Source: Eremomyces bilateralis CBS 781.70
Taxonomy: Eukaryota
NCBI GenBank assembly: GCA_010015585.1
Contig: ML975180.1
Reading direction: 5' to 3' (one strand)
DNA length: 64,000 nt
Part shown: positions 11,339 to 51,273 of the stretch, piece by piece
Layout: each line of letters starts with the position of its first letter
Position numbering within the stretch: position 1 is the first letter of the stretch
Position numbers and translations under genes: made by a program
Notes under the pieces: model-generated
Told to the model about the DNA's origin: nothing
What the model saw: only the letters and a program-made list of their open reading frames with translations
The model's database searches: none

Positions 11339-13019
11339 TTTAAGCTCCAAAGAGATGAAAACAAACCGTAAAGAGCGACAAGATACTCAAACGAATGTTC
11401 CAACCAGAGTATTAGCGAAAGTAGGTCGGTTGGACCTTATGGCGACGGAGGGGAGCAGCTTGCAAACGGACAGCATTGCGGGTATCACGATATAAGTAAC
11501 GATTGCCCCATTGTTAGGTTATGATGGTCCAATTGATCGGCAGAGTTGTTTACAGTAGAGGTTAGACAAGCCTGTTGTATCACGGTCAGATCAAGCACAG
11601 ATTCGCCGTGATGGAGATTGACGATGCTGGAAACAGGGATTGATTGTCTACATTCATGTTTCGCGTCGACCCGGCCGGTCTGTCATCCTTGAACGGCCAA
11701 TTTGAGGGAATGCAGCGAGCTATCTTCCAATCCATCGGATCAAACGGCGGGATCGTTGTCTCATGGCGGGTCCAAGTAGGATTTGACGATGGAGAAAGGA
11801 GGATCGTCAGGGCGGCGCGGGTTGCAATCCAGGGGGGTCATGGAATGCCTTGTGCAAGGGGCTGAGATTCAGCAAATCACACGTCCTGACGCGAATGCCC
11901 AACCACCAACCTCGTCCTTCGGCGCGAGTACCAACAATCCACATCTTCCGACGAATTCGCGTGTATGTACTACCCTGCGAAGGTACAAGGACAAGGCGTT
12001 GTGGTTTGCTCAACAGCCGATGATGCGTTATTAAGAGTCTATGCTCACCTGCCATTTCTGGCTGGTCTTCTCTCGTTATCAGATATCAGGATCCATAGCG
12101 GGCCACAAGCCCACAACCCTCCGATGGTCCATGTCTCCAGTTCATGGCGCAAGGCGCAAGCGGGATTAAGAAACCAAACAAGCTTCGTTTCCAAGGAAGC
12201 CTAAACAAGCTTATCAACCGACAAGCTGCATTGGCACCGCTAGATCCAAGGGCTAGGATAGGGGCCGTCAAGAATCCTCCTCGAAGACCACGGGTACGCC
12301 TTCAGCGACGTAGGATGCGGAAGGTGTTCAAGATACAGTATGCAGAGATTTGCCGATCCAAATCTCTACCCGAGTGGATGCTGAAGGGCTTCCCCAGAAA
12401 AAGAAGGTAGTATGGCTGATGAGTGATGACTGAAGTAATGGCAGATGGCAGATACCCATGCCCTCATCATCCGTCATGGAGTCTATACTCTTGAGGAAGT
12501 GGAAGAATCGTACGGAATAACGTTGTGTGCTACCGAAACTGCCTCCAAAAACGGAGGTTTCTGATGCCATTCTCTGCGGTCTTTCCGCCTAGGCGAAACG
12601 CCCTCGTTTCGTTACCGGCGGCGCCCAAAACTCCCTGCTACAGTGCCAAAGCCCTGCACGCGCTCAGGAGTGTGGTTCTACAGACCAAACTTGGGGGGAT
12701 CCGATTTTGGAATTCCGTCCCTCAGTTTTTCGTTTTTCGACCTTCGCAACTGCTATGCCTCTATGCTAATTTCGGAAGCATGATGGTGTCAAACGCTATG
12801 GCTCCGCTACAGAGCCTCCCTTTGCCTTCGCACATAATAACCAATGTCGAGGCCCGTCGCTCGATGGATCGTTTCGTCGTACCCGTTTCTGTTCTCTTCT
12901 TTGCCTGGGCGCTCGTTATTTCGCTGTTCCAGACCGATCTCTATTATCCAGCTGCCTTTGTTAAATTGCCCTTCGCTCTCTTACGGGACCGCTCTCTACA
13001 TCGATCTCCGAGACCATCG

Positions 13020-15190: not shown

Positions 15191-15426
15191 GTCACTAGCG
15201 AAATTGGCTTCCGCTTAAACGCAGCCCTAAACGTCGTTCCAACTTGCCGCAAGGGTGTTTCACTGTTACTATCATCTTAAGGCGTAATTTGGTTTTAAAG
15301 CCTTTGAATTTCTAATCAAACATTACTCATCGGCTGTCGCCACTTGTGCTATTCATGTAGTATATAAAAGACACTATCTGTAAGGGAGGTGGGCGCGGAG
15401 GAGGTTAAAGAATGCTTAGGGCAATA

Positions 15427-18400: not shown

Positions 18401-20217
18401 ATTTCGAGAGACTAGGACAGCCACTTAACTGGCCAAATTGTTAGCGAATACTCTGTAATATGCTGTAGATAGTTATACTAACGGAAGTAAACGACCCCAA
18501 AGATGTGATAGCATAAACTCCTTCCGACACCATTCCCATCCATCCAAGGGCCTCGAGCCAGTGAAGAAGATGTTCCTGTAAGAATTGATGCACTTGACCA
18601 TTATCGTAAAGTCGAGTACCGCTTTTCTGGAGGTGCTGGATCCAGTAAAGACATGCATACTGGACTTCAGGAGGTAAACTTTGTGTAACTCGGCGTCTCT
18701 CGGCATTGGCTACAAGCATGCCGGGGGCATTCACGCAACATATATCTTGCTTGAGTGATAACGACATAAGCTGGATACAGCTGTTGGTTAACACTTGGTG
18801 GGCTTTCTTCTCGTCTACCCATAAGTTTGGATCTCCGCATCTCTTTTCATCGAGGAGAAAGTCGCGAAACGAAGGGTGATGCAGACGAAGTGGATATATG
18901 TCGACCTTGGGAATGTTTAGAATCGCATGAAGATCCCTGAGCACCTGACCAATATTTTGCTTGGGGATATTAAGTAGCCTGTGAAGCGAGCCGGCAGAGA
19001 GCGGGGAGAAGAGCACCACGATGCTTCCAAGAATATGACTTTGCATGCCATACAATGCTTCCTTCTCTTTCGCTAAGTAACCTAACCGGATAGATTTCTT
19101 TAGGACGGTAGTATAGAGCTTATTAAGGTGTACTTCTGGATGCTCTTCTGGTGCAGGAATAGAGGTACTACCTTCTAACAAAGTTTGCACTCTTTCGTCT
19201 GCGAGATAACCTTCTTGAATGAACCGACAAGCGGTTGCGGCCCAAATGAACAATCCCCCTGCAGTCTGGATCAGGCTTTTGATAATCTCTTCGCCTGGCC
19301 AGGAGTCATCTAGAGAGTGCTCCTGTCCAATGAGCTTAAGATTATACTCGAAGAAAACAGAGATATCGTGATCTACGATAGAGGGTGATATGCTGTGAAG
19401 TACAAAATCCTGGATATTCGCATTCGGTAGCTGACGGAATCCATATCGGATTGGAATTTCAGGTCGGCTTGTCAGCAAGACTCGTAGTCGAACCGTCTTT
19501 AACAATCGAGCTTCAGCTAAGAGGTGTATGATAATCCGGATGTTATTGTCACCGTCGCACTCATCGAGCGCATCAACGACAAGAATGTACGAGGACTGGC
19601 CACCGTTTTCACCTAGCTTTAATAGTGGACCTAGGATAAGTTGCTGCCACTGGTCACGGAGGGACTGGCTCGCAATGTCGCGGTGCTCTATGATGGCATC
19701 GCAAATGTACTGTTGGAGAGAGGGTATGTTGTTCGCCAGCTGCCACGCAATGCTCGTGATGAACTTGCCTGCATGGTTGACATCCCCACCGCCGCGCGAG
19801 AAGAAGAAGCTGGCTCCGAGATGCTTCTCATCGAAGCCTCTGCGGGCGACAGTGCGCGCAATTGTCGACTTGCCCGTGCCGGCCAAGCCGTTCAACCAGA
19901 AAATAGAGCGCCCATCTTGCCTGTCAGCCCAGTTGTATATCTCTTGGAGGAGGTCGACGCGGGTATCGGGAAGGCAGGCCGGGTCGTGTTGTCGCTGGTA
20001 TGTATTGAACGGCGCGTCCTTTGCGGTAGGGAGGGAGTTGAGCACATCGTTCAAGTCTAGATTGCCAGTAAGCTTCCTGCTGCTTTGAGGCCATAGCCAG
20101 CTAAGCACCCTCACTTTTGCTGCTCCCAAAGTTCACAGACCCATGGATAGTGCCAGCCACGACCTGCGAATTCTGGTTGGCGGACACACCACTAATAAGT
20201 TGAGTGCTGCCTGACAT
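15427..20217 (-). CDS. NACHT-WD40 NLR (NWD/HET-E-like); exons ~20217-20115, 20056-18483, 18428-15427; two N gaps in the repeats
   Basis: P-loop [14 protein letters not shown], Walker [31 protein letters not shown]; at least 18 near-identical 42-aa WD40 repeats; introns with GT/branch site/AG keep the frame. Confidence 0.93.
15720..18210 (-). repeat. Tandem 126-bp WD40 repeat array with high internal identity
   Basis: Unit [42 protein letters not shown] repeated; assembly gaps fall inside the array. Confidence 0.97.
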
Positions 20218-21380
20218 GAGCTTGGAATAGCGACGCTAATTCGCTCTCTTCTGGCGCATGTTGCTGTGTATGTGGGCATGCGAACACCTGGGAGTGAGTT
20301 CATGTCTGTATGCAGATGAGGTTCATCCTCAATCCTCAACTAGCGAATGCATTCGCAAGGCTCGCCAATCAACACTCCTGCCTTGCCGCTATCCACTGCT
20401 GGAGAGCGGCTGTCGGCTGCAAGGTAGGGCGGACCTAACACCAAGACCATTTGTCGACACTATCAAAGCGAGCATCTTCCATTTCGGCGGCCAACGGGCG
20501 CTGTACCCCCTCCGAACTTGAAGCAATGTCTTATATCACTCAGGTTGACTGTATTTATAATATCAAGCGCGAAAATAGAAATGGAAATGTTATCCACTAT
20601 CTTTCGTCAAAGTAGGAACCCTTGATTGTGGACTGTGGAGTTTCTAGACTGGCCACGGCCGGTAACCCTGCCGCCCTGTCATCCTCTATAATTATCCTTA
20701 TTACTCTCTAAGCCGGCTTGGTTTTGGCACGCGATGCTTATAGACACATTCTTCCGGTCCTCGAATGCCTCGAGGTCGCCGCGGCCGCCCTTTCTGTCCC
20801 TTCTGCTACGGCAGAGGCTAGTTGCAGCTGGGAGCGGAGTCGTGTCGGTCATGCGCGAGCGAGAAGGGGAGAGCGATTGGGTGACAGGGGCCCGTTAGGG
20901 AAAGGTGCAAGGAAAGGCGAGGAGGGCGAAGGAGGTGAAAGGTGGGGACAGTTTAGAGGAAAGAACGAAGATGGAGAAGTCCGAGCTAGGGAAGAGGACA
21001 CCCAAAACCAGAAACGGCAGGTGACCACCCCCGCCACCATGTCGAATATTTTTAAAAAGTCACACCTTGCATCGTCTATCATTCCTTACACTTAGTTAAT
21101 ATCCATGGCTTTTCTGAATCTCAATTCCAATATGTACTTCCCCGACACAATGCGGTGGTGCAGGGCAGCTATAGACCCCCCTCTTGCCTCACCTCAACCG
21201 AGGGTTGTGTGAGAAAATCGTGATAGGGCCAAATTCGAGGCCCCCTGCCCAGCACCACCAAAACCACCATCAAACCACTCATACAGCAAAATATCACTTT
21301 CCAGGCGGTTCACATGTAAATTTGAGGCTGTAGATTTCTATGTAAATAGTAATGTCGCGAGAGTTTCAGGCGTTGAGCTC

Positions 21381-22464
21381 TTAATAACGTGATTGAAGCC
21401 CATTTCGCTCTGCAATCTCTGCCATCCTGTCAGGCATAGATTCGATATAGGAATCGATCTCATGTTGTGGAATCTTGTTCCATTCATCGATGATCGCATC
21501 CTTGAGCTCTCCCTGAGTTTTGGGATGCCGTTTACGCTGTTTTAAGCGCTGTTTTAGGATCCTCCAGACGTTCTCAATTGGGGACATATCTGGAGGTCCG
21601 CATACCAAGGAATCCCCCATTCAGACATGAACTTTTTCACCCTATTAGTCTTGCTCCGGGTTCCGTGGCACCCATCATTTTCAACCTCGAGGAGGAAGGG
21701 CCTCCCTTCCTTCCGAAAACGCTGGAAAAGGGGGACGATATAGGGCTTCAAGATCTCGTCGCGGTAACGGGTCATATTGAGTCCAGATTCGCGACCCCCC
21801 GGCCTCTCCTTTTTGTGGTATTCGTAGAATACGAGGTGGCTCTTATATCCCATCCCTACGGCACCCCAGGCGTGGAGGACATTTTTTGGTCTCTTTTTCC
21901 TATGCTGAATGCAATCAGGGCAATACCGCTCCTCTTTCCCGCGGATTACCCACTTTGAGTTCTCCATACCAAGATGGAAATGGGCCTCATCTGAGAAGAC
22001 AACGTATCGCCAGAGGGGAGTCCAAAGGCGGTGGTCCTGAGCGAATTGGTAGCGCTTGATCCGGTTCTCCTCCTTGATATACGGTTTTTGACAGGCACGG
22101 CACTTCTGGAATCCCTCACGCTCAACGGCTGATTTAAGGGTCTGCCAATGGCATCCGAGCTTCCAAGATCGCACTATCTCCTCAAATGACTCGATTCGCC
22201 GGTCGTAATGACCGACGAGCCACCGGATAATAGCCTGGATCTGTTCAACCAGGAGACTCCGTGGGCGACCTCTTGCGGTCCCGACCCTGCCTTATTAGTT
22301 CGCCTAGAACTCCTAGCTCTTAAGATACGATATCCTGTGGCCGTTGAAACACCACATCGTTTAAAAATATCGTTATTTGAGAGCTCTGGGCAATGCCTCC
22401 GGAGGGTCCGAACTTCCTCCCTTTCTGGGGTTGACCGCACGTGACTTTCGGGCGCTGGGGACAA
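21381..22464 (-). pseudogene. Tc1/mariner (DDE_3) transposase, frameshifted
   Basis: N-terminal HTH (GVSTATGYRIL), VVFSDEAHF, EVENDGCHG, PPDMSPIENVW spread over three frames. Confidence 0.85.
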
Positions 22465-23161
22465 CGATGGTGTCTGGAGCGGTTCGTACGGTGGTGTAGG
22501 CTTTTTGCGCGGGCGTATAAATCTCTCTCTCTCTTAAACCTACGGTAGGTACTAGACACCTCTGCCGTAAACCACAAGCGACCGCACCACCCCACCCATC
22601 GCGTCGCATATCCAGATGAATCTTGATATTTCAACAGAATGGCTCGTTACCGAATCAAACACTGTTCGAAGGGTAGAAGGTATGGATTTCGAACGATTCG
22701 CGGCGCTGCATAACCAACTCCTTGACCTTGCGGGGACAGGACGACCGTTAGAGGACATGGACCATCGGCCTTGGTGGGAGTTTCATCGTTAGGAAGCCGA
22801 AGTTCTCCCCGAAGGACGACTTTCATCCTCCGTCATTCATTTCCTGAAGCGGATTCGCGTCGAAGACGACTCTACATCTACACTGCTTTTCCGTGGCATT
22901 CGCAGTCGACTTGGGGCCTTTGGAGGGTCTTCAGACTTATCGTGATGGAACTTGAGCTCGCTCTTATGCCACCAACTGATTGAAGCTGCAAAATGAAGGG
23001 CATTACCTACCTTTGCGGGTCTGGCTTGGAGGTTTTCAGGCTTAAGTGTAATGGTCTTGCGCCTTTGGCTCAGACGTGGTTGATTGCCTGACGGCCTGGA
23101 GAGGCGCAGGTGGGGTGAGCCACAAGCAACACGTGACTACCTGCATGGCTTCATGCAATGC

Positions 23162-23974
23162 TTACCTCAGGCTCTCAGGCCCTTCAGTGGGACGCAAAGG
23201 CGCTAACCCAAAATGGGTCACCCACACGAAGGGCCTGAGACAAATTTGAAATTTTTTGGTGGCGTTGACGTTCGTGGCATGCAAATTGGTGAGCATTCAG
23301 GTCAACATCATCAGCTTCATGGAATGATTCTACGCGCAATATAGACCAATTCTATCTCAAAAATTTGGAATTCGGAGCTATGGATCCCAGCTATCGACCA
23401 TTCTGCTACACAAACTACCGCGCCCCCCTGATCGCGAGTCCTTGCCTTCGATGTTGGAGGCGGTAACAATGAAGATGGAGCAGATGCGCCATTTTCTGCT
23501 ACAGTCGAAGAAGAAGATCCTTTAGAAACCATATTCAGAGATCGGCTGTCCAAGAGTTCTACGTCAGTTCAGCAAGCATATACGAATCAATAGGCAGAAG
23601 GAACTCACTCTCTTCCGTCCTTAAGGTTCGCTGTTAGTTATTAAATAGTTCTCGCATCTCCAATATCAATGCTGCAACCTACTACTATTACTCAGGTCTC
23701 AGGATTCTTCATGACTACTTAGCCACCTCGCCTAATGAGATCGGGGATTTAGGAATATGTTTGGTTGCCGACTTGGACGCGCTGTTTGGCTTCGTACTTT
23801 GACTTGATGTCGATTTCGAGACGAGTTCGCAGCGGAGCTTGGAGGGGCAATTTGCATGCCACGAACGTCAACGCCACCAAAAAATTTCAAATTTGTCTCA
23901 GGCCCTTCGTGTGGGTGACCCATTTTGGGTTAGCGCCTTTGCGTCCCACTGAAGGGCCTGAGAGCCTGAGGTAA
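23162..23974. mobile_element. Non-autonomous element with perfect 127-bp terminal inverted repeats (23162-23288 / 23848-23974)
   Basis: Arms TTACCTCAGGCTCTCAGG...GCATGCAAATTG are exact reverse complements; 559-bp spacer without a credible ORF. Confidence 0.8.
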
Positions 23975-24050
23975 CTTCATGTAGTGTGTAGCAAACTGCA
24001 TGGCCGCCCCAGGCATATCAGCAGACTTCCTTGAGAAGAGAGAGATCTTC

Positions 24051-24082
<32 letters not shown>

Positions 24083-24091
24083 TAACTGAAT

Positions 24092-24322
24092 TCATAACGT
24101 TAAACTATGGTATCGAATCCATTTGACTCGAACCCTCACATTAAGACGCGTTCCCTCTTCCCGTATTACCCTCCCCTTTGTCTGTTCGTTAGGGTCGATA
24201 TGCGCCTCGTCCGTAAATGCGATTGAATCCCAATACCCAAAGAGAGGCTGCTCACGGCCGAAGCGCCCATACCCCACTCTCTCCCTTTTATTCTTAGCCG
24301 AGATAGGTTTCACTTGCTCCAT
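24092..24322 (-). pseudogene. Tc1/mariner transposase fragment
   Basis: KPISAKNKRERVGY...YWDSIAFTDEAHIDP...VIREEGTR (first catalytic D region only). Confidence 0.65.
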
Positions 24323-24733
24323 CTTGAAACGTTGGGCACTGCAACGGTCGACGAGGTTTTTACCGAGGCTGGTGAGATTTCATTGAAAACGGAAAACAGC
24401 GCTATACCAGATACCGTAGGGCGTTGCTAAACTACGAACGGAAGTTCGGTAGCACACAGATTACGTAGTAATTATGAGCTTGGAATCTTCAATGGAAAGC
24501 CGGATATCACATGGCACTTGGCAGGGACCCCTGCCTCCAGCGGAAATCCTTAATGGCACCGTTACTCAGGATCGCTACTTCAATGATCACCCGAATTCCT
24601 TTCCAACAGTCCAATCCTCTCGAGGGTGGTCTATTAGATGTGTAATACCGAATACGTTGGTGATATCAAAATTCGAGTCGTTCACCGAGTCTCCTTTTAA
24701 GTTTTCTCTCTGTTTCTCTGCATTTGTCAAGTC

Positions 24734-30358: not shown

Positions 30359-31507
30359 AGCTGCAACGGGACGCAGGAGACGAGAAAACGAGCAGACACG
30401 GAATCACCCACTTGAACACGAGGACGAAAATGCTTATAGAAGCCATCGAAACTTCCGGCAAATTTATTTAACCTTATCTAACCGAGCCATGGCACGGGGT
30501 AAGCGGATTGCTCGTGTCTAGATGCACAGCAGAAAAGTCCGGATAGCTGAGCTGGGGAATATCCAGGCGATCTTGCCATTCTGGTTGAGTAGAACATGGT
30601 TGGGCATCCAACCACCGACCTCGAACATGCTATTCGCACTGCACGTTTGGATTATGCATCCGCCAAGAGGGCTCGTCGCACGCTACTAACATCGGGATGT
30701 CGTGAAACTGGTCGTAAACACCATGTGATCCACAAGGAACGTCCTTTGATGAGCCCTACGTCTCCCGCTATCGTCTCGGTTGGCAAACGAAGTTACGGAG
30801 GTCCAGTATGCTGCTGAATCGGTGGATATCTGGGTTGGATACATCCCCGGACCCCGACCCCGAAGGTCGAAAGTCCCCGATTAACCGTAGCGTACCCGGG
30901 GTTTGATTCGTGATCTTGGAGGCGCGATAGGCCGATGGCCGATAAGTGATAGGAGCGGCAGTTGTCTTTGTCGGAAGGAATTATTTCTAGGCTACGTTCG
31001 ACATAACTGATTGGCAAAAGGATTGAGACTGGATCCAATTTGGCAATTGCATGCCGATGTGGGGTTTTAGTTTGAAGATCTGCATATATCAGCCGACAAA
31101 GCTTGTCTAAGCTTGTTCTTACCCCAACCGCTGCCCAGTTTCGGCGCACCGGATCCTACCGTAGTTAGCCATAATTGGCGATCATTCAGTTTCAGCAAGC
31201 TTGAATAACTGATATTCCGCAGAGTGTCCGCCCAATTCCTAATATCAGCAAGGGAATGGATGTGGAGCATAGGAAACATTGGGTTCTACAATTGGTTCGA
31301 GTGAGTCAATCCGACAAGGCGCTCGAGTGCTCGGCGCGGTCATACGAAACTAGTCTCAACGGCGACCTGCGTTAAATGGCTCGCATCTCGGGATATCTTC
31401 ACACGAGCTGTCAGCTCCAGCGTGGATACGCTGTACTACTTTCCCAGCCAGCAAATTTCGAGCAAGCTACTACTTCTAGTAAACGGGATCTTATCAGGCA
31501 TCAGCTC

Positions 31508-32590
31508 ATGGCAGAGTCTGCTGGTGACCACTCCGAGACCGGAGATTATCGGCTCATATCGAAAGCAGACGCGGAAGCATTTGCAACTAGGCTGCTGGTG
31601 GCCAACGGAACACCAACGTCTCACGCCGAACATGTTGCCGCATGCCTGGTCCTCGCCGACCTGCGCGGGATCGAATCGCATGGGATCAACCGCCTCATCC
31701 CGTACCTGATCCGCGTACGCGCAGGTCTCCTCGACCCGGCCGCCGAGCCCATCCTCAAACAAGTCACGCCGGTGGTAGGAGAAATTGACGGGAAGAATGG
31801 CTGGGGTTTTCTGACCGCCAAAGCCGGTATGCAGCGGGCGTGCGACATGGCGCAGACGTTCGGAATCGGCATGGTGTCGGCGCACCACAGCAACCACTTT
31901 GGCATGAGCGCGTGGATTGTAGAGCAGGCCATTGAGGCGGGGATGATGTCCCTCGTCTTCACCAATTCCTCGTCGGCGCTCCCCGCGTTCGGTGGTCGAG
32001 AGAAGCTGCTAGGTGTGAGTCCTATTGCCGCCGGAGCTCCTGGAGGGAACCATCCGCCGTTCATTCTTGACTTCGCGCCAAGTGTCGCAGCGAGAGGCAA
32101 GGTTCACAAAGCGCTGAGGCGTGGCGAGGAGATCCCGTTCGGCTGGGCGTTGGACGCCGAAGGGAGGGACACAACCGACCCGGCAGCGGCTCTCGAGGGC
32201 ACGATGCTTCCGATGGCCGGCCCTAAAGGCTCGGCGTTGGCAATCATGATGGACGTGTTCTCAGGTGTTCTCTCTGGGTCTGCGTTTGCTGGGGAGGTCG
32301 TCGGTCCATATGACAAGACGCGAGGGCCGGGGGAAGGAGTGGGCCACCTTTTCGTGGCGATGAAGCCAGACCTCTTCGTTAGCGGGGAAGAGTTCCGCCA
32401 CAGGATGAATCATCTGTATGAGAGGGTAACCGGGAGCAAGAAAGCAGACGGAGTCGAAAGGATATACTTTCCTGGTGAAGTTGAGGGGGAAAAGCGCAAG
32501 CAAAGGGAAGTGTCCGGAATCCCTTTTGCACACATTGAGGTCAACAGCCTCAATGAAGAAGCGAGAAAGGCTGGGGTGGAAGGGATCTAA
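31508..32590 (+). CDS. Ldh_2 family (malate/L-lactate/ureidoglycolate-type) dehydrogenase
   Basis: ADLRGIESHG, SNHFG, LGVSPIA, GPKGSALA, RIYFPGE; start taken at MAESAG. Confidence 0.9.
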   Translation: MAESAGDHSETGDYRLISKADAEAFATRLLVANGTPTSHAEHVAACLVLADLRGIESHGINRLIPYLIRVRAGLLDPAAEPILKQVTPVVGEIDGKNGWGFLTAKAGMQRACDMAQTFGIGMVSAHHSNHFGMSAWIVEQAIEAGMMSLVFTNSSSALPAFGGREKLLGVSPIAAGAPGGNHPPFILDFAPSVAARGKVHKALRRGEEIPFGWALDAEGRDTTDPAAALEGTMLPMAGPKGSALAIMMDVFSGVLSGSAFAGEVVGPYDKTRGPGEGVGHLFVAMKPDLFVSGEEFRHRMNHLYERVTGSKKADGVERIYFPGEVEGEKRKQREVSGIPFAHIEVNSLNEEARKAGVEGI

Positions 32591-32690
32591 GATGGGCTTA
32601 TTATGATAGGACTTAAGAGGGATTACCGGTAGATAACACCCCCGTAATTGAGGAATATAATTAGAGAATAGACTTCTCAATACGAAGTAA

Positions 32691-35197
32691 CGTGTGCTAC
32701 CGAAATTGCCTCCAAAAACGTCCGTTTTTGGAGGGTTTTCCGCTCAGGCGAAAAGCTCTCGTTTCGTTAGAGTAATTACTGTCGATGCCCCAAAACTCCC
32801 TGGCACAGTGCCAAGGCCTTGCACACGCTCAACGCGTCATCCAATTTTGGACTTCCTGTAACGACGCTACCACTATGCGCCAAAATGGACACCAACACGA
32901 CTAAACCAAAGTCAATGTTGATTGTGGTAATTCGGTATATCAATATAAGGACCTTCTGGTCAGGCATGCCCTACTCGGTAGGTTCCCCAAGCCATACCGT
33001 GACACTTCTAAGTTCTAACTCTCAATTTTCAGTTTTTCGACCTTCGCAATTTCTATGCCTCTATGTTAGTTATAAAAGCATGTGACACGATCGGGAAAGA
33101 AGTTGATTCGATTTCCGTAAACTCGTCAAACTCAAGCTACAGAAAAGAGGAAAAGAAGAGAAGTCTTAGAGTGCTGGTGGATTATTTACATGTTGGTCTC
33201 CTGTATTCACTCTTCTTTCCTAATTGGGAATCATATCAACACAACACGTTACGAGAGTAGTCAAAGGGAGACTACTTCGTCTCAGTGTTCTTCACATAAG
33301 CCTTGATACTCGCTGCACACCGACCAGCCAGGAGGGGCTATCGGCCGGGGGTAGCATCCACCCAGCCGGTGGTAATGAGCAGCAGGGCCGCGATGTAGGT
33401 TGTCATGACAGCCAAGCCATGGCAGGGTACCGCGACGCCCGCCACGTGAATCCCAATTAACATGTCCGAGATCAGGAACAGCCCCCCGCCCAGTGCCACC
33501 CGCGAGGAGACACCAGTCGCAGTGATGGCCATCAGCGCAAGAGCGAGGCTGTACACGAGCACCGGCACCGCCAGCGGACCCAAAGGCGTCCACAGCAGGA
33601 AATTCGCTACCGCCCAGCAGGGAACGTAGATCAGGAACGCGGTGACGGGAGGGCTACGATGGCGCAAGAACGCGGTGGTGAAGGCAATCTGGGTGACGAG
33701 GAAGCAGCCCATTCCGACGAGGAAGGCCGTTTCGCCGCCGACAAGTAGCGCGATATCGCCACCGCACGCGAGGACGAGACCGATGGCGACGCGGTCGATG
33801 GCCCGGTTTTCCCGTAGCACGTACACCAGAATGAGCAGCACCGGGGCGAGAAGGGGTTTGGACAGCCATTGCAGGGCGATTGAGTTGACGGCGATGCCGA
33901 TCAGGTCGATGGCGGACACCGCGAGGAATGGCCGGAGGAGCTGGAGGGTGGTGCCGAAGTCCTTATAATCGGGACTTGGCTGGATAGCCGAGTGCGGTAC
34001 AGGAGTCTTTCGAGCCATACTTGGATATTGTAACGATGACACCTTGGATCACTCAGTAAGGAATTTGAACAGGTTGATTCGCTAGAATTAAGCTAAAGAA
34101 GAAAGAAAGGAAAGAGGGGGAGGGAGGTAGAGCGAGAGAGAGAGATTCATACAATACGCCCGTCAGGCCTCTTTGCGAGGCCCATGTGGGGAACTACATA
34201 GGCTGACTAATTACATGCGTTGGTGCCTTGTGGCCTTGTGCCTCCATTTTCTATCTTCGTTCTTCTAACTTCCATAACTATCTGCTTCTAACATGGGGAA
34301 TAGGAGGGAATGGTAGAAGGAATGAGATAGATATCCATGGTGGGTGAAATGAAAACACTCAACATGACCCACCACCACATGACCTCTCATCACGTGGTCA
34401 GAACTCCTGATCTGATCTCTACGGGAGCCACCTCATCGTGGGATCGTGGCAGATATTGGCTAGAGGAAGAAAGACTAACACGGAGATCCGGAAAGATATG
34501 GTATTAATGCTACAATGCCCCTTTTCTTACTATATTGATCTGCGCCACGGAAGCAAAGCCTTGGTGCAAGTCACGTGGCATGATCTGCACCAGCCACAAC
34601 CACTCCATTGCTCTGGGACGTTCTCTTACATTAAGTGTAGAATAAAGAGGGATCCTAGGTAGGGCGATGTGATGCTACAGTAAACACAAGATATCTGCAT
34701 TGGTATCACATGACTAGATCACATTAGGTCACATGGCCTTAACTATTTTACCCCTGATCTGTTGTCCTAGCCATACAGCCTTACTGACCCCTCAAAGACC
34801 AGTCTATCGTCGTAATGCAGTGTGCAACTATACGGAATACAGAATCAATTGCTCTCCTAATATTTGCACGTGAATCACTGAAGCATACCATTTTGTATCA
34901 CACTAGCCCATTCCTTGCGTGCTGTGACAGGCGAGGGCGAGAGATTCAGGCGGTGTTAATGGCGCGTGTTAAGGGGCCGATCGGTAGGCGGAATAAAATT
35001 GGTACGGGGCAATGCAAGAGGCAAAGGCAATCTGAGGTATGGAAATGGTAGAAGAGACAGAAGAGGGTTATTGGGAGTTAAGAAGGGGACAGGCGGTGGT
35101 ATTTATGTTTTTTGAAGAGATGATGTTTGAACGAGGAAAACAGCGTTATGCTCGATGCGGCAGCGCTAAATCGAAAACGGAAATTTAGTGGGACGCA
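32691..35197 (+). mobile_element. Captainless (derelict) Starship relative, ~2.5 kb
   Basis: 32681-32830 and 33021-33082 are homologous to the left end of element 1; 35117-35207 is homologous to its right end (24374-24471). Confidence 0.65.
33338..34018 (-). CDS. YhhN/TMEM86-family lysoplasmalogenase, intronless
   Basis: SKPLLAP, GLVLACGGDIALL, FLVGMGCFLVTQ, YSLALALMA, GGGLFLISDMLIG, VMTTYIAA; multi-TM. Confidence 0.9.
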   Translation of the reverse strand: MARKTPVPHSAIQPSPDYKDFGTTLQLLRPFLAVSAIDLIGIAVNSIALQWLSKPLLAPVLLILVYVLRENRAIDRVAIGLVLACGGDIALLVGGETAFLVGMGCFLVTQIAFTTAFLRHRSPPVTAFLIYVPCWAVANFLLWTPLGPLAVPVLVYSLALALMAITATGVSSRVALGGGLFLISDMLIGIHVAGVAVPCHGLAVMTTYIAALLLITTGWVDATPGR

Positions 35198-35479
35198 TTT
35201 ACGGTAAATGAGACTATGTCATCCTGACTGGAGTTTCTGACCTTCATGGTGTGGCTGATGAATCCTATGGATAGGGGTCTGGGCTTGGCATCAATTCCGA
35301 ATCTTTCTGTTGTTGAACCTGACATTTGTTCGTCTCCAAAGCATATCTATGACCCTTGAAGGCTGCGCAACAATACTACAACTATACAACTCGGTACTAT
35401 TCCGGTTATCCCATGAATTGAACCTTCATGTTGTGAGCAGCGTGCTTGCGATGAGAATGAAAGTTCAAAGCACGATAAG

Positions 35480-36525
35480 ATGAAGCTCCTGACCAAATCG
35501 CGCCAACTGGCGCATCGACGTAAGTTGCGAGCAACTTGCCCCTCAAGATTCAAGATTGCCTCTAACTATGCTAGTCCCTCTCTGCCAATGCAGAGCCTTC
35601 TCACTTTCCCTTTCCCGGCAGTATGCCTCTGCCAAACCCGCGCCTAAATCGCCAACCTCCTCGAAAGTGAAAGAGTCGACGAAGACACCGTCGATGCCGG
35701 AAATGCCCACTCTCGGAGACTTAACTGCCACGAATATCTTCGAGATCGACCGAAAAGAGCGGGCCGAAATCGAGAAGCAAGAGGTGAAGCCCGACATAAA
35801 TCGGACTGCGATGATGGCCGCCACCGATCCCGAGCCGTGGAAACGCAGACGATGGGAGCGGAAGATGGTGATCCGCGACATCACGCGACGGGGACGGATG
35901 TCCAAAGGGGAGATGCTGAAGCGCACCGAACGAGAGCACTCGGCCAAGACCCCAATGTTGAAGACCAGCACGAAGAAGCTGATGTTCCTGGCGCGCCAGA
36001 TCGCGGGGAAGCCCATCGAGGAAGCGATCCTGCAAATGCGGTTCAGCAAAAAGGGGAAGGCTGTCCACGTCAAGGCGTTCCTCGAGTATGCCCGCGATCA
36101 AGCCATCGTGTACAGAGGTATGGGTCTCGGCAAGGTCGGCGCGGAGGGCGAACCGGCCAAAGAGCCGGCCAAGATCGTAATCAAAGATAAGGACGGCACG
36201 CGGCGGAAGATCGACGACGCGAGCTCGATATATATTTCCCAGGCGTGGGTTGGTCGGGAGCCTTACGGGACGGATATCGATTACCGGGGTCGTGGACGAG
36301 CGTTCCGTCTCCGATTACCATACGCAAGTGAGTGAAACCATGTCGCATGCACCGTTCCCTATGGAATTCTAACGCGCTGCTTCAGGACTATACGTGGTGC
36401 TTAAGGAGGAGACCACTCGGATACGTCTAGCTGCCGAACGACAAAGGAAGAGGGACAATCGCACATTATGGACTCAGCTTCCTGATCGTCCAGTGACGGG
36501 TCAGAGTCAGTACGTGCTGTGGTAG
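35480..36525 (+). CDS. MRPL22: Mitochondrial large-subunit ribosomal protein uL22, 3 exons
   Basis: RRWERKMVIR, TSTKKLMFLARQIAGKPIEEAILQMRFSKK, YISQAWVGR, YRGRGR; last exon VVLKEETTRIR...QLPDRPVT. Confidence 0.93.
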
Positions 36526-37416
36526 AGAATTTTTTGATCATGCTTGCATTGTACAAAACTGTTGTATATATGACTGGAGAGGGACTATGAAATTCCATGC
36601 GATCGTCAGGCGTTCTTGTTCGTCAAACGACAAGCATCTCAAGCATATTGATACTCATAGATGGGTTCCAGTGTCGTTCTAAAGGCGGAAGTCTACGGCT
36701 TTCACAGGTTTCGCTTAGTTCTTCAGGTAGTTTCGCTAATTGAAGTTTTGCTGCGAACTACACCTAGCAAGCGCAGCCTAAATGTCGTATTGTATCCGTA
36801 AACCCACCATATTCCCAAAAAGAACAAATCGCTTCTAGTCGTTTCCTTTAGATGCAGTGTTAGATCTCCAAGTTCAAAGTCAATCTCAAGCCAGCGCCCG
36901 CTCATTGGTCGATCTTCCAACGCCCCCGTGTTTTGCATCCATCTCGAAGCCTCGGCCGCGCCAGGGCCCCCCTGCCAACACCCCATATCTTCAATCAAAC
37001 CCCGCTTCAGATTCATTAAAACCTCCCTGAACATGCGCACTTGACCTGTCACACCCTCTGCGAATGGACACCGGTGCCAGCATGTGTAACGACGAACCCC
37101 TCCAGGTGGTTGGCGCGGAGCAGAGCCGAACGGCGTGGTGGACCGAGCATGGGGAGATCTGGCCATGAGAGTAACTTCGCTAACACTTTGCTGCGGAGTA
37201 ATGAAGTGTGGAGAGGAAGGATACGCAGCGTGGCATCTAGAGGCTTATTAACGTTTGGATCGTATAGAAATCTAGTTTTTGACGCTTCAAACGGTTTTTC
37301 TACAAGTTCTTCAACTCTACCGTGTCGCTTTTTGTCGCTTTTCCATCGTCTATGTTTACCCAAAGTCTTGAACTCCCCTACGACACCCCGATTCCGTCCG
37401 AGTGACACCGATCAGG

Positions 37417-42605: not shown

Positions 42606-43523
42606 TTGGCTGAATATACAGAAGAGGCTCTACAAAGTACTCTAGATGATTGTCGGACCTGGAAAATCCCCTCCTTGCGCAAGGTTTCGGAGCAATATCA
42701 AATCCCAAGGTCTACTCTAGACTCGCAGGCCGTCCAACTCGCAAAGAGAGCGCCCAGAATACACAGAAACTATCCCCTGTCCAGGAAAGATACCTTACGG
42801 AATGGATTGTCGAAGAAGACCGCGCCAATGGAGCCCTTTCTCACGCAAGAGTGGTCCAAATGGCAGAATGCATTGCCCGGGAAAATTGCGATACGACCCC
42901 TTGCGGTCAACATTGGACTCAAGGCTTCCTTCGTCGTAACCCGCAGGTGAACTCTATAGTTGGAACGGCACTCGAAGCGCCTCGAGCAAATGGCGCAACA
43001 AAAGAGGTCATCTCGGAATTCCTGGACCTATACAAGAAGATCTGCGACCAGTACAAGATCAAACCCGCGGGCCGCGAAAAGGTGGAATTTCGATGAACAC
43101 GGCATAATTCTTGGCGTAGGAATGAATGGGAGAGTTATAAGGACCTCAACGAACGGAAAACGTAAACGTACGTACGTTAAGGTCCCTGGTGATCGCGAAT
43201 GGGTTTCCATCATCGAAGCAGTTTCCGCAGAAGGTCGAAAAGTCTCCCCCCTTATCATCTTCAAAGGCCAAAACCTCCAGACTACCTGGTTCCCTTCTTC
43301 AACCAAGGGCCTGACCGATTGGCACTTTACGACATCAGAGAATGCGTGGACTTCTAACGAGATTGGTCTTAAATGGCTGGAGAAGAAATTCCTCCCTGAA
43401 ACCAGTCCTGACAGTAACGGACACGATGAGTGGCGTTTATTAGTAGGCGATGGCCACGGATCTTATGCTACCATTGAGATGATGAAGGCCTGTAAAGATA
43501 CAGACGAAGAGTTTGATATATAG
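42606..43523 (+). pseudogene. pogo/Fot1 (DDE_1) transposase, frameshifted and 3'-truncated
   Basis: HTH SLRKVSEQYQIPRSTL, CENPB-type LSPVQERYLTEWI...WTQGFLRRNP, WNFDEHG, REWVSIIEAVSA, PLIIFKG, AWTSNEIG, LVGDGHGSY. Confidence 0.88.
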
Positions 43524-44942: not shown

Positions 44943-47393
44943 TAGGGCACGCCGTCCTCATAAAGTCTTCATGAAATCTAACCCGATTTAGCTCTAGCGC
45001 TCATAAATGCCCTCATTAATACTAGCCTAATTAGGTATAGCATTACCCAAATATTAGTGCCTGAGGCACCCGCAGCAGTATTTGCAGGAGATCCTAATAC
45101 CCGTTCTCATAGCTCTCTCCAACTGTATAAGTCTTGTAATCGACATCTTCATCACTCAAATGACCAAACCATAACAGTAATGGACGTGTATGTACATTAG
45201 GGCTCGCCGTCCTTATAAATACTAGCCAACTTGGTTCCTACCTTCAACTGCTTTTCTTTGTTAACGTATTTGAAGCTTTAATCCTAAAGATATTGATTCT
45301 TTTCGTGTTTACAATAGCATAGGATTATCTACATGATCTTCTCCCGCCTCAATAAGGCCATCTTCAAGCTCAATATACTCCTCCTCTAAGTCCTCCGCTG
45401 CATTTTCAATCTCGCTAGCATGGTCTCTTCCCTTCCTATCAAATACTCTCTGATTGATATACACGAATTGTAGCATATCAACATTCGTACCCTCAAGGCA
45501 TGAACGGAGCTTGTTCTGTAATAGTTTGAGTATAGAGAAGGAGCGCTCACAGGGCACTGAATTGCAAGGAGTTGATGCCAGTCTCAATGCAATAGGTCCA
45601 ACTGCTGGGGCGAATGTGGACGCAATCTGCCAGAAAGTCTTAATCGTCTCTTTATGCTCCCATATAAAGTGTCCCATATTGAATCGTCCTTCACGCCCCC
45701 GAAACTCAATGATCTGAGTTATAGCATTCTTATAATCCACCCCCATCCTCTTTAAGAAGTTATTAAGCTTCTCCCAAACCTGTGCGGCTGTATGGAATGG
45801 TATTGAGTCGTCGCCGATCGTATGTGGGTTAAGAAGGAACGCAGCAATATGAATATCTGTCGTTTGACGTTCAAATCGAGACTGCAGGAGTTGTGGGATC
45901 TTTGAGAGGTCATCGATATCAGGACGTTCTTGAACGATATTGGCTAAGTGCTGTTGAGCTTGCTTCCAGCTAGTCACGACGTGGTGAAGCTTTGCAGAGT
46001 CCGATTCTGACTGCTTAATAAGGCTATCGATCGGTTCCAAAATGTGGAGGATGAATTCGATGTCAATCCAGAATTGTCGATCCCAGACTACCGCCTTAAG
46101 CTCGTTTACCGAATCGCCTACCTCGTCTGGTAGGCTGTTGAAGTACAGTAATAAGGCCGGTTGTGCTCGCTTGACAGACTTGAGCATTGATACTTGAGTA
46201 CCCCATCTAGTAATAACAGATAAGGTAAAGGAGTATACCTTCTGCATTGTACTTTGCATATGCTCTCGGAGGATACCTAGTTGCTTTGGAGAGGAGGTAA
46301 ATGCCGTAACAATAGCCTGTGCTTTTTGGAACCGTTCTTCGAACCACGGGAGTAACACAATGTCTTTAATAAGGAGCTGCAAGCCGTGGCTATTGCACGG
46401 TACAAAGAATACGTGTCGAAGCTCCGGTTGCTTGCTGAGTATCGTCGCCGCTTTAAGCTGTGTAGCACAGGTGTCTGTTGTAACCGAATTGATCCGTGTG
46501 AAGTTGCCATTGCATAGTTCCTTCATGCACTTGTATAGCCACCCCGCGCTCCATTCGCCATTTAAGGTTTCGCCGGCGAGGATCTCGGATTTGATATATA
46601 AGGCGCCGTACTCTGGCACGTTGACACAGAGATTCTGGACTCGTTTCTTGCGTATGTTGTTCGACTCATCAGCAATAAGGTTGATTGTGGAGGAGCTCTG
46701 AATAATAGGCATAACTTGCTTCCGGCAACGTTCGTAGAGTTCTACTTAATTAGTGGCTGGGAGAAATAAAAGAGTACTTAAACTAACCTGGTAGAAAGTC
46801 GTTGACGATATCCTTCCGTGTAGGAGGCTTGACAAGAGGATAGAACGTGCGATAGATACGCGCGAGGTGCTTCTTCTCCTCAAAAGCATCAAGCGGTAAG
46901 GCATCCATTATGACAGCCATTGTCATATCCAACTGGATAGTCCTCATTTGTAGCGCAGAGAGCGACGGCACCCTAAGTTTCGGCTGGATTGACGTCTGTA
47001 ATTTCCCATTAAGCGTAAGGTATGGCTTGCAGCGTGTGAGGTGTGTCCGGAGGTCGGTGGTTTGCCAGGATCGTTCTGTCTTACACGCCTTACAGATAGC
47101 TCTATCTGTAGCGTAATCAAGGTGTTTTATTCGTATAAAGGAATTGAGTATTTCTACATCGGGGATGCGCCCTTTGGGGGGCATCTTAGTACGCAATTGT
47201 TCAAGCAATGGGCGTGTATATACTCTGTACATAGCCTCAATCTTCAATTCTTCATAAAATAGGCACGTTACATGACTCAGTATGATGACTCAGCATGATT
47301 AATCAGCAACGCACGAGCCCATTACTGCCACCTTTTATGAGATTCCTCTGTAATTCATCATTTAATCCAGATGAGCTCATTTGGACTGCCCTA
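44943..47393 (-). mobile_element. hAT DNA transposon with perfect 8-bp TSD
   Basis: TTCCCAGC at 44935-44942 and 47394-47401; ends TAGGGCA... / ...TGCCCTA. Confidence 0.92.
45309..47184 (-). CDS. hAT transposase (DUF659-type), apparently intact, one intron at ~46786-46742
   Basis: Zn finger CKAC...HLTRC; IADESNN, TTDTCAT, PCNSHGLQL, ITRWGT, CNSVPCERSFS; splicing gives in-frame FLP-ELYERCRKQVMP. Confidence 0.9.
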
Positions 47394-47704: not shown

Positions 47705-50700
47705 ATGATGGCTCCGTCACGTACCCGGCATGCAGATTCCAAGGAGTCGTCACCCCGGGACGAAGACGTGTCTATGACAGATGCTGGGGCTGCTGTGGGC
47801 CAGGATGATGGCGACGCAGGCGATGAACCCATGGCCGTACGTTTCTTGCTCTCCCCCTTCAATATCAGCCTATCGTCACAATGTTGCGGACTATGCGTTC
47901 TGACTCTTAACCATTCAGGACTATCAGGAAACACCCGACTATACAGTAAGACTATCAATATACATCATTTGATTCTTATTCACACTACACCCAGGATTCC
48001 GACACCAACCCAAATACCACGGCCAGCAGCGTTGCAGGAGACCAAGCCCAGGCCGATGGACGTATGCGACGATCCCAAGCATTCCAACTTCGCAAAAGCA
48101 TATACGGAAAGAAGAACAGTCGCTTGGCCGAGTCGAAGGAGGACGACTCCATCCGACGATTCCAATACCTGCTTGGTCTGACTGACCTGTTTCGGCACTT
48201 CATCGAATCGAACCCGAACCCACGAGTCAAGGAGATTATGGTCGAAATCGACCGAAGAGAGGCAGAGGACGAGGAAAAGGCGAGGAAAGGCCATTCGAGG
48301 AAGGGTGGTGCTGCCGCCGATCGACGTCGCCGAACGGAACAAGAGGAGGACGCGGAGTTAATCCGAGATGAGAAATACGGTAAAACAGAGACCATTTTCC
48401 GTGAATCACCTGCCTTCATTCAAGGTGGGGAGATGCGAGATTACCAGATTGCTGGCCTGAATTGGCTAGTTTCTCTCCATGAGAACGGCATTTCTGGCAT
48501 CCTCGCAGACGAGATGGGTCTGGGAAAGACTCTCCAGACGATCGCATTCCTGGGCTACCTGCGGTTTGTCTGCGACATCAATGGACCGCATTTGGTTGTC
48601 GTTCCAAAATCCACCCTCGATAACTGGAATCGGGAATTCAAGAGGTGGATCCCGGAGATCAACGTGCTCGTCCTTCAAGGAGCGAAAGATGAACGCGCAC
48701 AGCTCATCAGCGAGCGATTGATCGACGAAAAGTTCGATGTGTGTGTAACGAGCTACGAGATGATTCTTCGCGAAAAGTCGCATTTGAAGAAGTTTGCCTG
48801 GGAGTACATCATCATCGACGAAGCGCACCGAATCAAAAACGAAGAGTCGTCGTTGGCGCAGATTATCCGATTGTTCAACTCCCGAAACCGACTCCTCATC
48901 ACCGGCACACCCCTTCAAAACAACCTACACGAGCTTTGGGCCTTGTTGAATTTCCTGCTCCCCGATGTCTTTGGTGACGCGGAAGCTTTCGATCAGTGGT
49001 TTTCTGGCCAGGATGCCGATCAGGATACCGTTGTCCAACAACTACACAAAGTCCTTCGACCATTCCTGCTTCGTCGTGTCAAGTCCGATGTGGAGAAGAG
49101 TTTGCTTCCAAAGAAGGAGGTCAATTTGTTCATCGGCATGTCCGAAATGCAGGTCAAATGGTACCAGAAGATCCTCGAGAAAGACATCGACGCCGTGAAC
49201 GGTGCAGGTGGTAAGAAAGAGTCGAAGACCCGGCTACTGAATATCGTCATGCAGCTCCGGAAATGTTGCAATCATCCTTACCTGTTTGACGGAGCCGAGC
49301 CGGGTCCACCTTATACTACCGATGAGCATTTGGTTCAGAATTCGATGAAGATGGTAATGCTCGACCGACTCCTCAAGCGAATGGAAGCGCAGGACAGCCG
49401 GGTCTTGATCTTCTCCCAGATGAGCCGACTGCTGGATATTCTCGAAGATTATGCGGTTTTCCGAGGCTACAAATATTGCCGCATCGACGGTTCCACAGCA
49501 CACGAGGATCGCATTGCCGCCATCGATGAATACAATAAACCGGGATCCGAAAAGTTTCTGTTCCTTCTGACCACTCGCGCCGGGGGCTTGGGAATCAACC
49601 TGACCTCGGCTGATATCGTCGTCCTGTTCGACAGCGATTGGAACCCGCAGGCGGATTTGCAGGCGATGGACCGTGCCCATCGTATCGGACAAACGAAGCA
49701 AGTCATGGTGTATCGATTTATCACGGAGAACGCCATCGAAGAGAAGGTCCTGGAGCGAGCCGCTCAGAAGCTTCGCTTGGACCAGGTCGTCATCCAACAA
49801 GGTCGTGCTGGGCAGCCGCAGACCAAGGCCGCGTCGAAGGAGAATTTGCTGTCGATGATTCAGCATGGTGCTGAGAAGGTGTTCGAGTCGCAAGGTGCCA
49901 TTGGCGCCCATTCCGGCGGCGAACTCACCGACGATGACATCGACGCCATCCTGAAGCGTGGTGAGGAGCGTACGGCGGAACTGAATGCCAAATACGAGAA
50001 CCTTGGTATCGATGACCTACAGAAGTTCACGTCGGAGTCCGCGTACGAGTGGAATGGTCAGAAGTTCATCGCTCCGAAGAAGGATATTGGTTTGAATTGG
50101 ATCAATCCGGCGAAGCGAGAGCGCAAGGAGCAAGCCTACTCGATCGACAAGTATTACCGACAAGCTTTGATGACCGGCGGACGAACTGCGGACACCAAGC
50201 CGAAGATCCCACGCGCACCGAAACAGATCACCATCCACGATTACCAGTTCTTCCCGCCCGGACTGAGCGAGCTTCAGGACAAGGAGACAGCTTGGTACCG
50301 CAAAGAGAACAACATCAAGGCACCACTTCCTGACGGGCCCGAGGAGGAGCTGGAATCCCGTCAAGCGGAGCAAGAGCTCGAGCAGCAGGAAATCGACAAT
50401 GCCGAGCCGCTCACCGAGGACGAGAAAGCCGAAAAGGAGCGGTTGTCGCAGATGGGTTTCGTGGACTGGAATCGCCGCGACTTCCAGCAGTTCATCAACG
50501 GATCGGCTAAATACGGGCGGGACAACTACGAGGGCATCGCCGAGGAGGTGGACGGCATGGATGTCGATGAAGTCCGCGAGTACGCGAAAGTGTTCTGGAA
50601 AAAACACAAGGAGATCCATAACTACGAGAAGTACATCCACGCGATCGAGGAAGGCGAGGAGCGCACCCGCAAGATCGAGCACCAACGCAAGATGCTCAAG

Positions 50701-51273
50701 AAGAAGCTCGCCATGTACCGCGTGCCGCTGCAGCAGATGAAGATCAACTACTCCGTCTCGACGACCAACAAGAAGGTGTACACCGAGGAAGAAGACCGGT
50801 TCCTGCTGGTGATGCTCGACAAGCACGGCGTTGACACCGAGGGCATCTACGACAAGATCCGCGACGACATCCGCGATTCGCCGCTATTCCGGTTCGATTG
50901 GTTTTTCCTCAGCCGCACGCCCGTGGAGATCGGCCGGCGGTGCACGACGCTGCTGACGACGGTCGCTCGGGAGTTTGAGAGCGGCGACGGGAAGGTCACT
51001 AATGGCGCGGGGAAGGGCAAGCGGGCGCAGGATGAGGAGGAAGAGGTCGAGGAGGAGGACGTGCCGGCGAAGAAGAAGTCCAAGAGTGGTGTTAAGGTAA
51101 GCGCGGATTCATTTATTTCTACCGCGCCTATATACTTATTCGATTCGCAGAACAAACAACTCGACACGGTCAAGGGTAGTAAAGCCACATCCGCGAGCAC
51201 CTCTCGAGCGCAGAGCGAAGTGTCCACCGGATCTGCCCCATCGCGATCCAAGTCCAAGAGCAAGAAGAAATAA
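47705..51273 (+). CDS. ISW2: ISWI chromatin-remodelling ATPase
   Basis: [51 protein letters not shown]-terminus; short 5' exons. Confidence 0.96.

Follow-up and report, generated by a model that had tools for sequence, protein, structure and literature searches.

A probable captainless remnant of a Starship-family element with one bacterial-type gene in Eremomyces bilateralis

Introduction

How does a gene of bacterial type come to lie between two ordinary genes of a fungus, enclosed by the ends of a mobile element whose recombinase gene is missing? This question is raised by a 64,000-nt stretch of the genome of Eremomyces bilateralis CBS 781.70 (contig ML975180.1 of assembly GCA_010015585.1), which is referred to here as the window and whose numbering is used throughout. 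The unit in question, el2, occupies positions 32681-35207 (2,527 bp) in the spacer between the genes for an Ldh_2-family dehydrogenase and a mitochondrial-type ribosomal protein L22 (MRPL22), and its single sizeable gene belongs to the YhhN (lysoplasmalogenase) family. Its ends resemble those of a second element in the window, el1, which is of the Starship type. Starships are reportedly giant transposons of the Pezizomycotina with a DUF3435 tyrosine recombinase, the captain (Gluck-Thaler et al. 2022; Urquhart et al. 2023). An initial annotation had described el2 as a captainless mini-Starship with one bacterial-type gene, and this claim is confirmed overall, as every check that could be run agreed with its prediction. 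As to its history, we consider it probable that el2 is the remnant of a small member of the Starship family that was integrated between Ldh_2 and MRPL22 by a captain, and that lost this captain and its other cargo but kept YhhN.

The ISW1-type open reading frame (ORF) at 47950-51270 is 98% identical to a protein named as from E. bilateralis CBS 781.70, and its next matches are only 80% identical, which places the host in an isolated Dothideomycete lineage. Comparison draws on public sequencing runs (X1, X3 and X4), whose evidence consists of assembled contigs with neither strand nor true transcript ends; a further run, X5, contributed no contig. X3 is an RNA-type run from another sample and study; in its MRPL22 contig two GT..AG introns are removed, and X3 thus holds RNA-derived sequence. 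X4 carries the same species label, and its Ldh_2 differs at 104 of 557 positions. Stretches of el2 lacking X3 or X4 coverage were excluded as evidence.

The ends of el2 and the element that shares them

The element with which el2 is compared has the following parts:

12511-24471, plus strand: el1, 11,961 bp, a Starship-type sibling of el2
12525-12537 and 24445-24457, inverted pair: terminal inverted repeat (TIR) cores of el1, exact 13-mer GTGTGCTACCGAA
12783-14734, plus strand: captain pseudogene region of el1, with the captain ATG at 12783
13510-14734, plus strand: DUF3435 tyrosine-recombinase (captain) pseudogene, found as colinear profile pieces
15427-20129, minus strand: NACHT-WD40 NLR cargo gene of el1, by domain match
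21554-22288, minus strand: Tc1-type helix-turn-helix fragment in el1, by domain match
23162-23974: foldback element of 813 bp nested in el1

El1 opens with TACGGAATAA (12511) and closes with TACGTAGTAA (24462). Its captain frame begins 272 bp from the left end and is directed inward. The DUF3435 pieces are colinear (profile positions 3-64, 95-144, 150-210 and 221-319), and the gene has decayed, with one change of frame and with stops in frame at both 13918 and 14092. Judged by this anatomy, el1 appears to be a small, dead Starship, and the combination of DUF3435 pieces near the left end, NLR cargo and TIRs marks the family as Starship-type. The corresponding ends of el2 are made up as follows:

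32681-32690, plus strand: left terminal 10-mer TACGAAGTAA, direct-repeat or core-like, with the same motif at both ends of el1
32691-33082, plus strand: left end of the family, by alignment with el1
32692-32704, plus strand: TIR core GTGTGCTACCGAA, an exact match to the el1 core
32709-32734: palindrome of 26 nt
32832-33020: insert of 189 bp specific to el2, in whose place el1 has 54 unrelated bases
33021-33082: leader block, counterpart of the el1 leader directly 5' of the captain ATG
35069-35207, plus strand: right end of the family, closing with TTACGGTAA

The initial annotation had derived the left end from matches to el1, and this was borne out. Ungapped identity is 120/140 (85.7%) between 32692-32831 and 12525-12666 and 51/62 (82.3%) between 33021-33082 and 12721-12782. 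The el1-like left end of el2 thus spans about 400 bp at 82-86% identity, and the likeness stops at the captain ATG of el1 (12783). Within the window, GTGTGCTACCGAA occurs exactly at 12525(+), 24445(-) and 32692(+), and five times when up to two mismatches are allowed, compared with 1.03 matches expected by chance.

Copies of the left end elsewhere, as proposed, were found in contigs of X1, X3 and X4. In three distinct X1 contigs with the left end, 306, 188 or 189 nt are skipped, which identifies these contigs as other family copies without the insert of el2. In both X3 and X4, loose ends show an unrelated flank turning into TACG(G)AGTAACGTT at the position of 32681, and contigs of the two runs hold further left-end copies with other flanks. 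By these contig counts the family is evidently multi-copy. Scans of metagenomes with two left-end patterns gave 0 matches each. X3 contigs with loose ends at 32691 and 32696 also pass from unrelated flanks into left-end copies, which suggests transcription through the 5' end of one or more other members of the family.

The palindrome at 32709-32734 is near-perfect (CCTCCAAAAACG..CGTTTTTGGAGG), while el1 has only a short CCTCC..GGAGG stem at this place. As a DNA fold, the subterminal hairpin at the left end of el2 has a z score of -2.9, reached by 1 of 200 shuffles; hairpins at the other three ends of el1 and el2 do not go beyond shuffles (z 0.12, -0.25 and -1.73). Hairpins can be drawn at all four ends and only this one beats its shuffles, and they were not used as a feature of the family. 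The palindrome may be a recombinase-binding feature.

The right end is less conserved. Positions 35116-35207 align with el1 24373-24471 at an identity of 62/80 (77.5%). For the last 100 nt of el1 and el2, the local score (+1/-1) is 27, against a mean of 8.8 (sd 1.6, maximum 17) for shuffles, none of which reached 27 (0/2000); the alignment therefore beats the shuffled controls named in the initial annotation. When the el1 right end was compared with 620 segments of 400 nt on both strands, the right end of el2 was the best match outside el1 (27), followed by an unrelated match at 18, with the 99th percentile at 17.8. The same scan recovers both left ends on the opposite strand as TIR matches. 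Taken with the BLASTN value given below, these scores indicate a right-end signal that is real but weak per base. An independent tie to the family comes from two X4 contigs that match 35069-35109 (loose ends at 35109) and then continue as an el1-like right end. An offset inverted-repeat alignment of the ends of el2 with each other (TACCGAAATTGCC... against TACCGTAAATGCG...) was set aside in favor of the colinear 90-nt alignment with el1.

Beyond the termini the two elements are unlike. Over the 100 nt outside the left and right terminus, 499/2000 and 647/2000 shuffles, respectively, score as well as the comparison of el1 with el2. Homology accordingly ends at 32681 and 35207, as sharply as in a mobile unit. 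Since flank likeness beyond the termini is not significant, a segmental duplication or a longer target common to both elements was dropped as an explanation.

The YhhN gene and its bacterial origin

The gene between these ends and the sequences that bear on it are:

33338-34018, minus strand: YhhN-family (lysoplasmalogenase-type) coding sequence, 226 aa, no intron
33342-33941, minus strand: bacterial-derived DNA, by BLASTN to Micromonospora locus L004
33133-34242, minus strand: X3 contig of 1,111 nt with 0 differences, covering YhhN and flanks of about 205 nt and 224 nt

It is the only ORF of el2 longer than 78 aa. The protein matches Pfam family YhhN (PF07947) at E 8.1e-31, with 107.6 bits against a gathering cut-off of 25.6, over residues 49-218. 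No NCBIfam model matches it, and a sequence search of the PDB gave no relative.

A search of 5.8 billion proteins returned 147 matches at E<=0.001, the best 120 of which were listed. Among these 120, every named match comes from Micromonospora or a related actinomycete (Polymorphospora, Actinoplanes, Cryptosporangium or Dactylosporangium), with identity to the Micromonospora proteins reaching 70%, and only the protein of the window itself and one other, P0003, are of the eukaryote type. P0003, found on a single Logan contig, is 69% identical to the YhhN of the window. The two share a 23-residue N-terminal extension, which none of the other matches listed possesses, an early stop, and 29 residues seldom seen (<5%) among the bacterial rows. 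In a tree of 72 rows (a quick search without bootstrap, for which thinning had dropped 48 of the 120 listed matches), the two fungal proteins, P0002 and P0003, group together (SH-aLRT 99) within a Micromonospora clade of 15 rows (95).

The nucleotide sequence tells the same story. Positions 33342-33941 are 75.5% identical to Micromonospora locus L004 over 601 nt (BLASTN, E 1.4e-117) and coincide with an island of 60-67% GC between flanks of 37-48% GC. GC at third codon positions is 77.5% in YhhN, between that of the donors (92-97%) and that of two neighboring fungal ORFs (64% and 72%). By tree, protein identity and nucleotide identity, then, the lysoplasmalogenase that had been called bacterial-looking is of Micromonospora descent, as read from sequence comparison. 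Two features of a bacterium-to-fungus transfer are found here, namely the nested position in a bacterial clade (supports 99 and 95) and integration in fungal DNA with transcription, the RNA origin of the YhhN contig being likely. X1 contigs tile across the fungal junctions, and X3 holds an identical contig; since X3 contains RNA-derived sequence, transcription of YhhN is likely, and the contig over 33133-34242 is probably YhhN mRNA.

Of the 69 columns conserved to at least 95% in 118 bacterial-type rows, 62 are retained in both fungal proteins, that of the window and P0003, among them K54, G87-D88, S184-D185 and Y208. From this conservation YhhN appears to be a working gene, and its enzymatic function is predicted from family membership. 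Lysoplasmalogenases of the YhhN/TMEM86 type include Legionella YhhN, M. tuberculosis Rv1401 and human TMEM86A/B (available text of PMC9052158 and PMC11994398). For TMEM86B, the accessible part of the latter source proposes K53, G87, D88, H108, G175, S182, D183 and Y206 as catalytic, and residues that K54, G87-D88, S184-D185 and Y208 match by position were shown to be needed in TMEM86A/B (PMC11994398). The YhhN of the window has K54, G87-D88, G177, S184-D185 and Y208 in the order and spacing of seven of these eight residues, matched by position without an alignment to TMEM86. Unlike TMEM86, which has His at the remaining place, it has Q110, and Q is found there in all 118 bacterial-type rows.

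The locus in a related genome

El2 was expected to sit between two ordinary host genes, and Pfam identifies these as follows:

31376-32590, plus strand: left host gene, Ldh_2-family dehydrogenase (PF02615, E 1.7e-118), also in X3 and X4 contigs
35355-36589, plus strand: right host gene, MRPL22 (PF00237, E 7.4e-16), with GT..AG introns at 35520-35574 and 36328-36385 as seen in a spliced contig

The Ldh_2 stop codon lies 91 bp before el2. In X4, a contig of 54,639 bp (record 15) is colinear with 31643-37020 of the window and holds both genes. The points that match 32444 and 35833 are 786 bp apart in X4 and 3,389 bp apart in the window, so X4 is shorter by 2,603 bp, within 76 bp of the length of el2 (2,527 bp); the window minus el2 would measure 862 bp. 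YhhN of X4 lies on another contig (record 16, 21,447 bp). The initial annotation had pointed to this interval in relatives as a check, and in the one relative available the neighbors are indeed adjacent, with the edges of the difference placed to about 100 bp, and YhhN is elsewhere.

The loose-end consensi of the X4 YhhN, compared by eye, agree with P0003 at 10/10 and 6/6 residues and stop at the same codon, which identifies P0003 as the type of gene present in X4. Between the window and X4, YhhN shows 39 differences in 258 matched nt (about 85% alike), and Ldh_2 and MRPL22 are about 81-82% alike. The shared derived features, together with a divergence similar to that of host genes, indicate that YhhN entered before the two fungi split. 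For the same reason, relocation by the element of a gene already present in the fungus is more likely than its delivery from another species. The proposal that el2 delivered a single horizontally acquired gene therefore holds as far as a single gene of bacterial descent lies between the termini, but relocation is the likelier event. Similarly, the proposed link of Starships to cross-kingdom transfer stands in that a bacterial gene lies between Starship termini; nothing ties a Starship to the step from bacterium to fungus, which predates the split.

Content and class of el2

No DUF3435 gene had been seen between the ends of el2, and none emerged here: the captain region of el1, used in seven pieces (p0-p6) as tblastn queries against the el1-masked window, gave only matches with E>0.1. 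An Rfam scan of 32000-36000 found no family and a tRNA scan of the window found no tRNA, which leaves no 5S or tRNA gene as a target. Indices of repeat-induced point mutation are unremarkable for both el1 and el2. Among the contig matches listed there are other left-end copies, and no joint or variant in the interior of el2.

Measured against the traits of known groups, el2 is mixed. A captain is the first 5' gene of el1, as a pseudogene, and is missing from el2. Defined termini common to captain-bearing copies are present in el2. Where Starships run to tens or hundreds of kb and hold many cargo genes, el2 has 2,527 bp and one gene, and the expectation that it would be far smaller than typical Starships is thereby upheld. 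It also has the hallmark of deletion derivatives resembling miniature inverted-repeat transposable elements (MITEs), with both termini kept and the internal coding region lost. On captain and size, el2 falls outside the Starships, yet at both ends it is homologous to one.

In the region upstream of YhhN, a (GA)n microsatellite leads into a short dispersed repeat (34134-34283), with many contigs piling up on the microsatellite. X1 records 5-7 match the repeat at 34154-34283 with 10 differences each, so that no fewer than three X1 contigs other than its own hold copies about 90% alike. The promoter of the acquired YhhN could come from this repeat.

How el2 may have formed

The most economical account of these observations is that YhhN was relocated as Starship cargo by a captain of the family, and that this captain and the other cargo were lost. 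YhhN would have entered an ancestor of the fungal lineage from a Micromonospora-like actinomycete. There it would have been extended by 23 residues at the N terminus, received an earlier stop codon and flanks of fungal DNA, and become Starship cargo. The family captain, a tyrosine recombinase, would have integrated the unit at a TACGnAGTAA-like site in the Ldh_2-MRPL22 spacer, which is unoccupied in X4. An internal deletion with its left breakpoint at the first codons of the captain would have removed the DUF3435 captain and other cargo, leaving the left end (about 400 bp with the 10-mer, TIR core, palindrome and leader up to the captain start) and the right end (about 140 bp). We infer integration by a family captain and this order of events (cargo, move, deletion), with the 10-mer as the presumed crossover core. 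Given that no second copy or second site of el2 was seen, we lean slightly toward insertion of a larger element that then collapsed in place over movement as a mini-element.

Several points weigh against this account. X1 is possibly the source of the window itself and is not counted as independent support. BLASTN alone gives only E=0.18 for the 40-nt core of the right end, the right TIR core is degenerate (9/14 positions against GTGTGCTACCGAA by eye), and the right terminal motif, TACG-GTAA, is one base short of the left one. The interior of el2 has no similarity to that of el1, and el1 is itself only 12 kb long with a dead captain, no intact captain of the family lying within the window. The empty site in X4 is seen through flanking coding pieces at 80% likeness and resolved to about 100 bp, and a deletion or precise excision in the X4 lineage may be the source of the shorter spacer. 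Among the contig matches listed, no joint to family ends is found on the YhhN contig of X4.

The best-surviving alternative is that el2 was formed elsewhere by deletion and moved here as a 2.5-kb non-autonomous mini-Starship, with a captain acting in trans from a sibling. We regard this as possible, though clearly the less likely course. Both ends are kept and have diverged from el1 to a similar degree, as would be expected of a move that required the two; the family has several copies, and left-end contigs in the RNA-type run X3 mean that a family captain may be expressed somewhere; YhhN lies at different loci in two related genomes; and engineered miniature Hephaestus elements transpose, according to the accessible text of 10.64898/2026.09.21.753150. 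However, the ends of those constructs include the captain gene (same source, as far as its available text goes), the contig matches listed contain no second copy or insertion site of el2, its right TIR has decayed, and no report of a captainless Starship mobilized in trans was found in the open-access literature.

An ancestral segment of 2.6 kb, lost in the X4 lineage and bounded by the ends of an old Starship relic whose cargo here never included YhhN, is unlikely. The comparison has one relative, X4, and no outgroup, and, because Starship excision is precise, a site that is empty now may once have been occupied. Yet the 2,603 bp specific to the window fit the span from terminus to terminus within 76 bp, the homology to el1 stops exactly at both termini, and X4 keeps YhhN at another locus, so that some move is needed anyway.

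It is even harder to credit that only the left end derives from a Starship, as a solo end, that the right match arose by chance, and that YhhN and its flanks came independently. The right-end BLASTN value and the poorly kept TIR core would fit such a history. Against it stand the shuffles, not one of which attained the right-end score, and the segment scan, in which the right end (27) surpassed the best unrelated match (18). The orientation and order of the right end are also correct, its alignment finishes on the terminal GTAA, and the X4 copies match 35069-35109 before turning into an el1-like right end.

Bacterial contamination or an assembly chimera, which the high GC and the 70% protein identity to Micromonospora might bring to mind, can be dismissed in view of the overlapping X1 contigs that tile from Ldh_2 through el2 to MRPL22, the identical 1.1-kb contig with AT-richer flanks in X3, a second sample and study, the diverged fungal-type YhhN copy in X4, and the N-terminal extension, early stop and 29 derived residues common to P0003.

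Setting el2 as the remnant of a collapsed member of the family beside a bolder idea, we offer tentatively, and with some doubt, that it is a natural minimal Starship, in which a left end of about 400 bp and a right end of about 140 bp would suffice for excision and integration by a family captain in trans. The bacterial gene would then travel as a mobilizable cassette from locus to locus and potentially from fungus to fungus. If true, el2 would be a eukaryotic counterpart of bacterial mobilizable integrative elements and would define the cis-requirements of Starship transposition.

Other features of the window

Within el1, the foldback element at 23162-23974 has terminal inverted repeats of 127 nt that are 100% complementary, with TA on both sides. 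It resembles a MITE-type (Tc1/mariner-like) element that has recently entered the old Starship. The NLR gene (15427-20129, minus strand) combines NACHT/NPHP3_N with a WD40 part of tandem 126-nt units, in at least 15 copies that are 76-89% alike. N-masked gaps lie in this array (15987-16145 and 16558-16644) and elsewhere in the window (3662-3896). Upstream of el1, 6236-7925 holds ORFs with an HNH_2 endonuclease domain and a HET domain, which together with the NLR gene would make up a cluster of allorecognition-type genes, as judged from their domains.

The window is rich in transposon debris. Remnants of hAT-family transposases lie at 2244-4413 and 45309-46742 (minus strand), with a Dimer_Tnp_hAT domain and, in the second, also DUF659. 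Around the first remnant are repeats (112-204/4699-4791) and inverted repeats (1274-1369/8212-8311). A DDE_1 (pogo/Tc5-like) transposase fragment is found at 42960-43520.

Comparison with known systems

El1 resembles known Starships in having DUF3435 as the first gene at the 5' end, reading inward, short terminal repeats and NLR cargo. El2 shares both termini of el1, is inserted relative to a related genome and carries cargo. It is unlike Starships in its lack of a captain, its 2.5 kb and its single gene, and el1 itself is only 12 kb long. In the accessible parts of the literature, the Starships of A. fumigatus measure 47.5-151.6 kb and Voyager 74-124 kb.

In the main texts of the open-access literature we found no natural captainless mini-Starship, no terminus-defined single-gene derivative, and no bacterial YhhN described as Starship cargo. 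Starships are known as giants and their decay products by leftover cargo, whereas el2 consists of two ends and one gene, in an insert absent from a relative. It sets bounds on the sequences that might be enough in cis for a captain to act, and it shows that a bacterial gene can become Starship cargo and move within a fungal lineage. It also suggests that annotation pipelines anchored on captains would miss such small derivatives. An intact Micromonospora-type YhhN in a fungus is, moreover, a clean and testable case of the cross-kingdom acquisition of a membrane enzyme predicted to detoxify lipids.

One natural parallel is Derelict of Macrophomina phaseolina, a degraded Starship region without a captain; regions of this type were called by at least three matches to conserved Starship cargo genes in the absence of DUF3435 (available text of 10.1101/2021.12.13.472469). 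In both cases the captain is gone and the cargo persists and stays useful to the host. In contrast to Derelict-type regions, which are large and recognized by their cargo, el2 is recognized by both termini and has no Starship accessory gene.

A second parallel is ToxTA/ToxhAT, where, according to the accessible text of PMC12506042, a non-autonomous Tc1/mariner-type transposon carries ToxA. Like el2, it is a DNA element of small size that is non-autonomous and carries one gene, acquired horizontally, as its payload. It differs in belonging to another superfamily (TA duplications, DDE transposase) and in being a passenger inside a Starship rather than a Starship derivative (PMC12506042).

The engineered mini-Hephaestus and "starmid" constructs (10.64898/2026.09.21.753150, available text) resemble el2 in design, as a Starship cut down to two ends and a small payload. 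Those constructs are synthetic, and the mini-Hephaestus ends include the captain, whereas el2 is natural, captainless and old, with ends that have diverged by 14-22% from those of el1.

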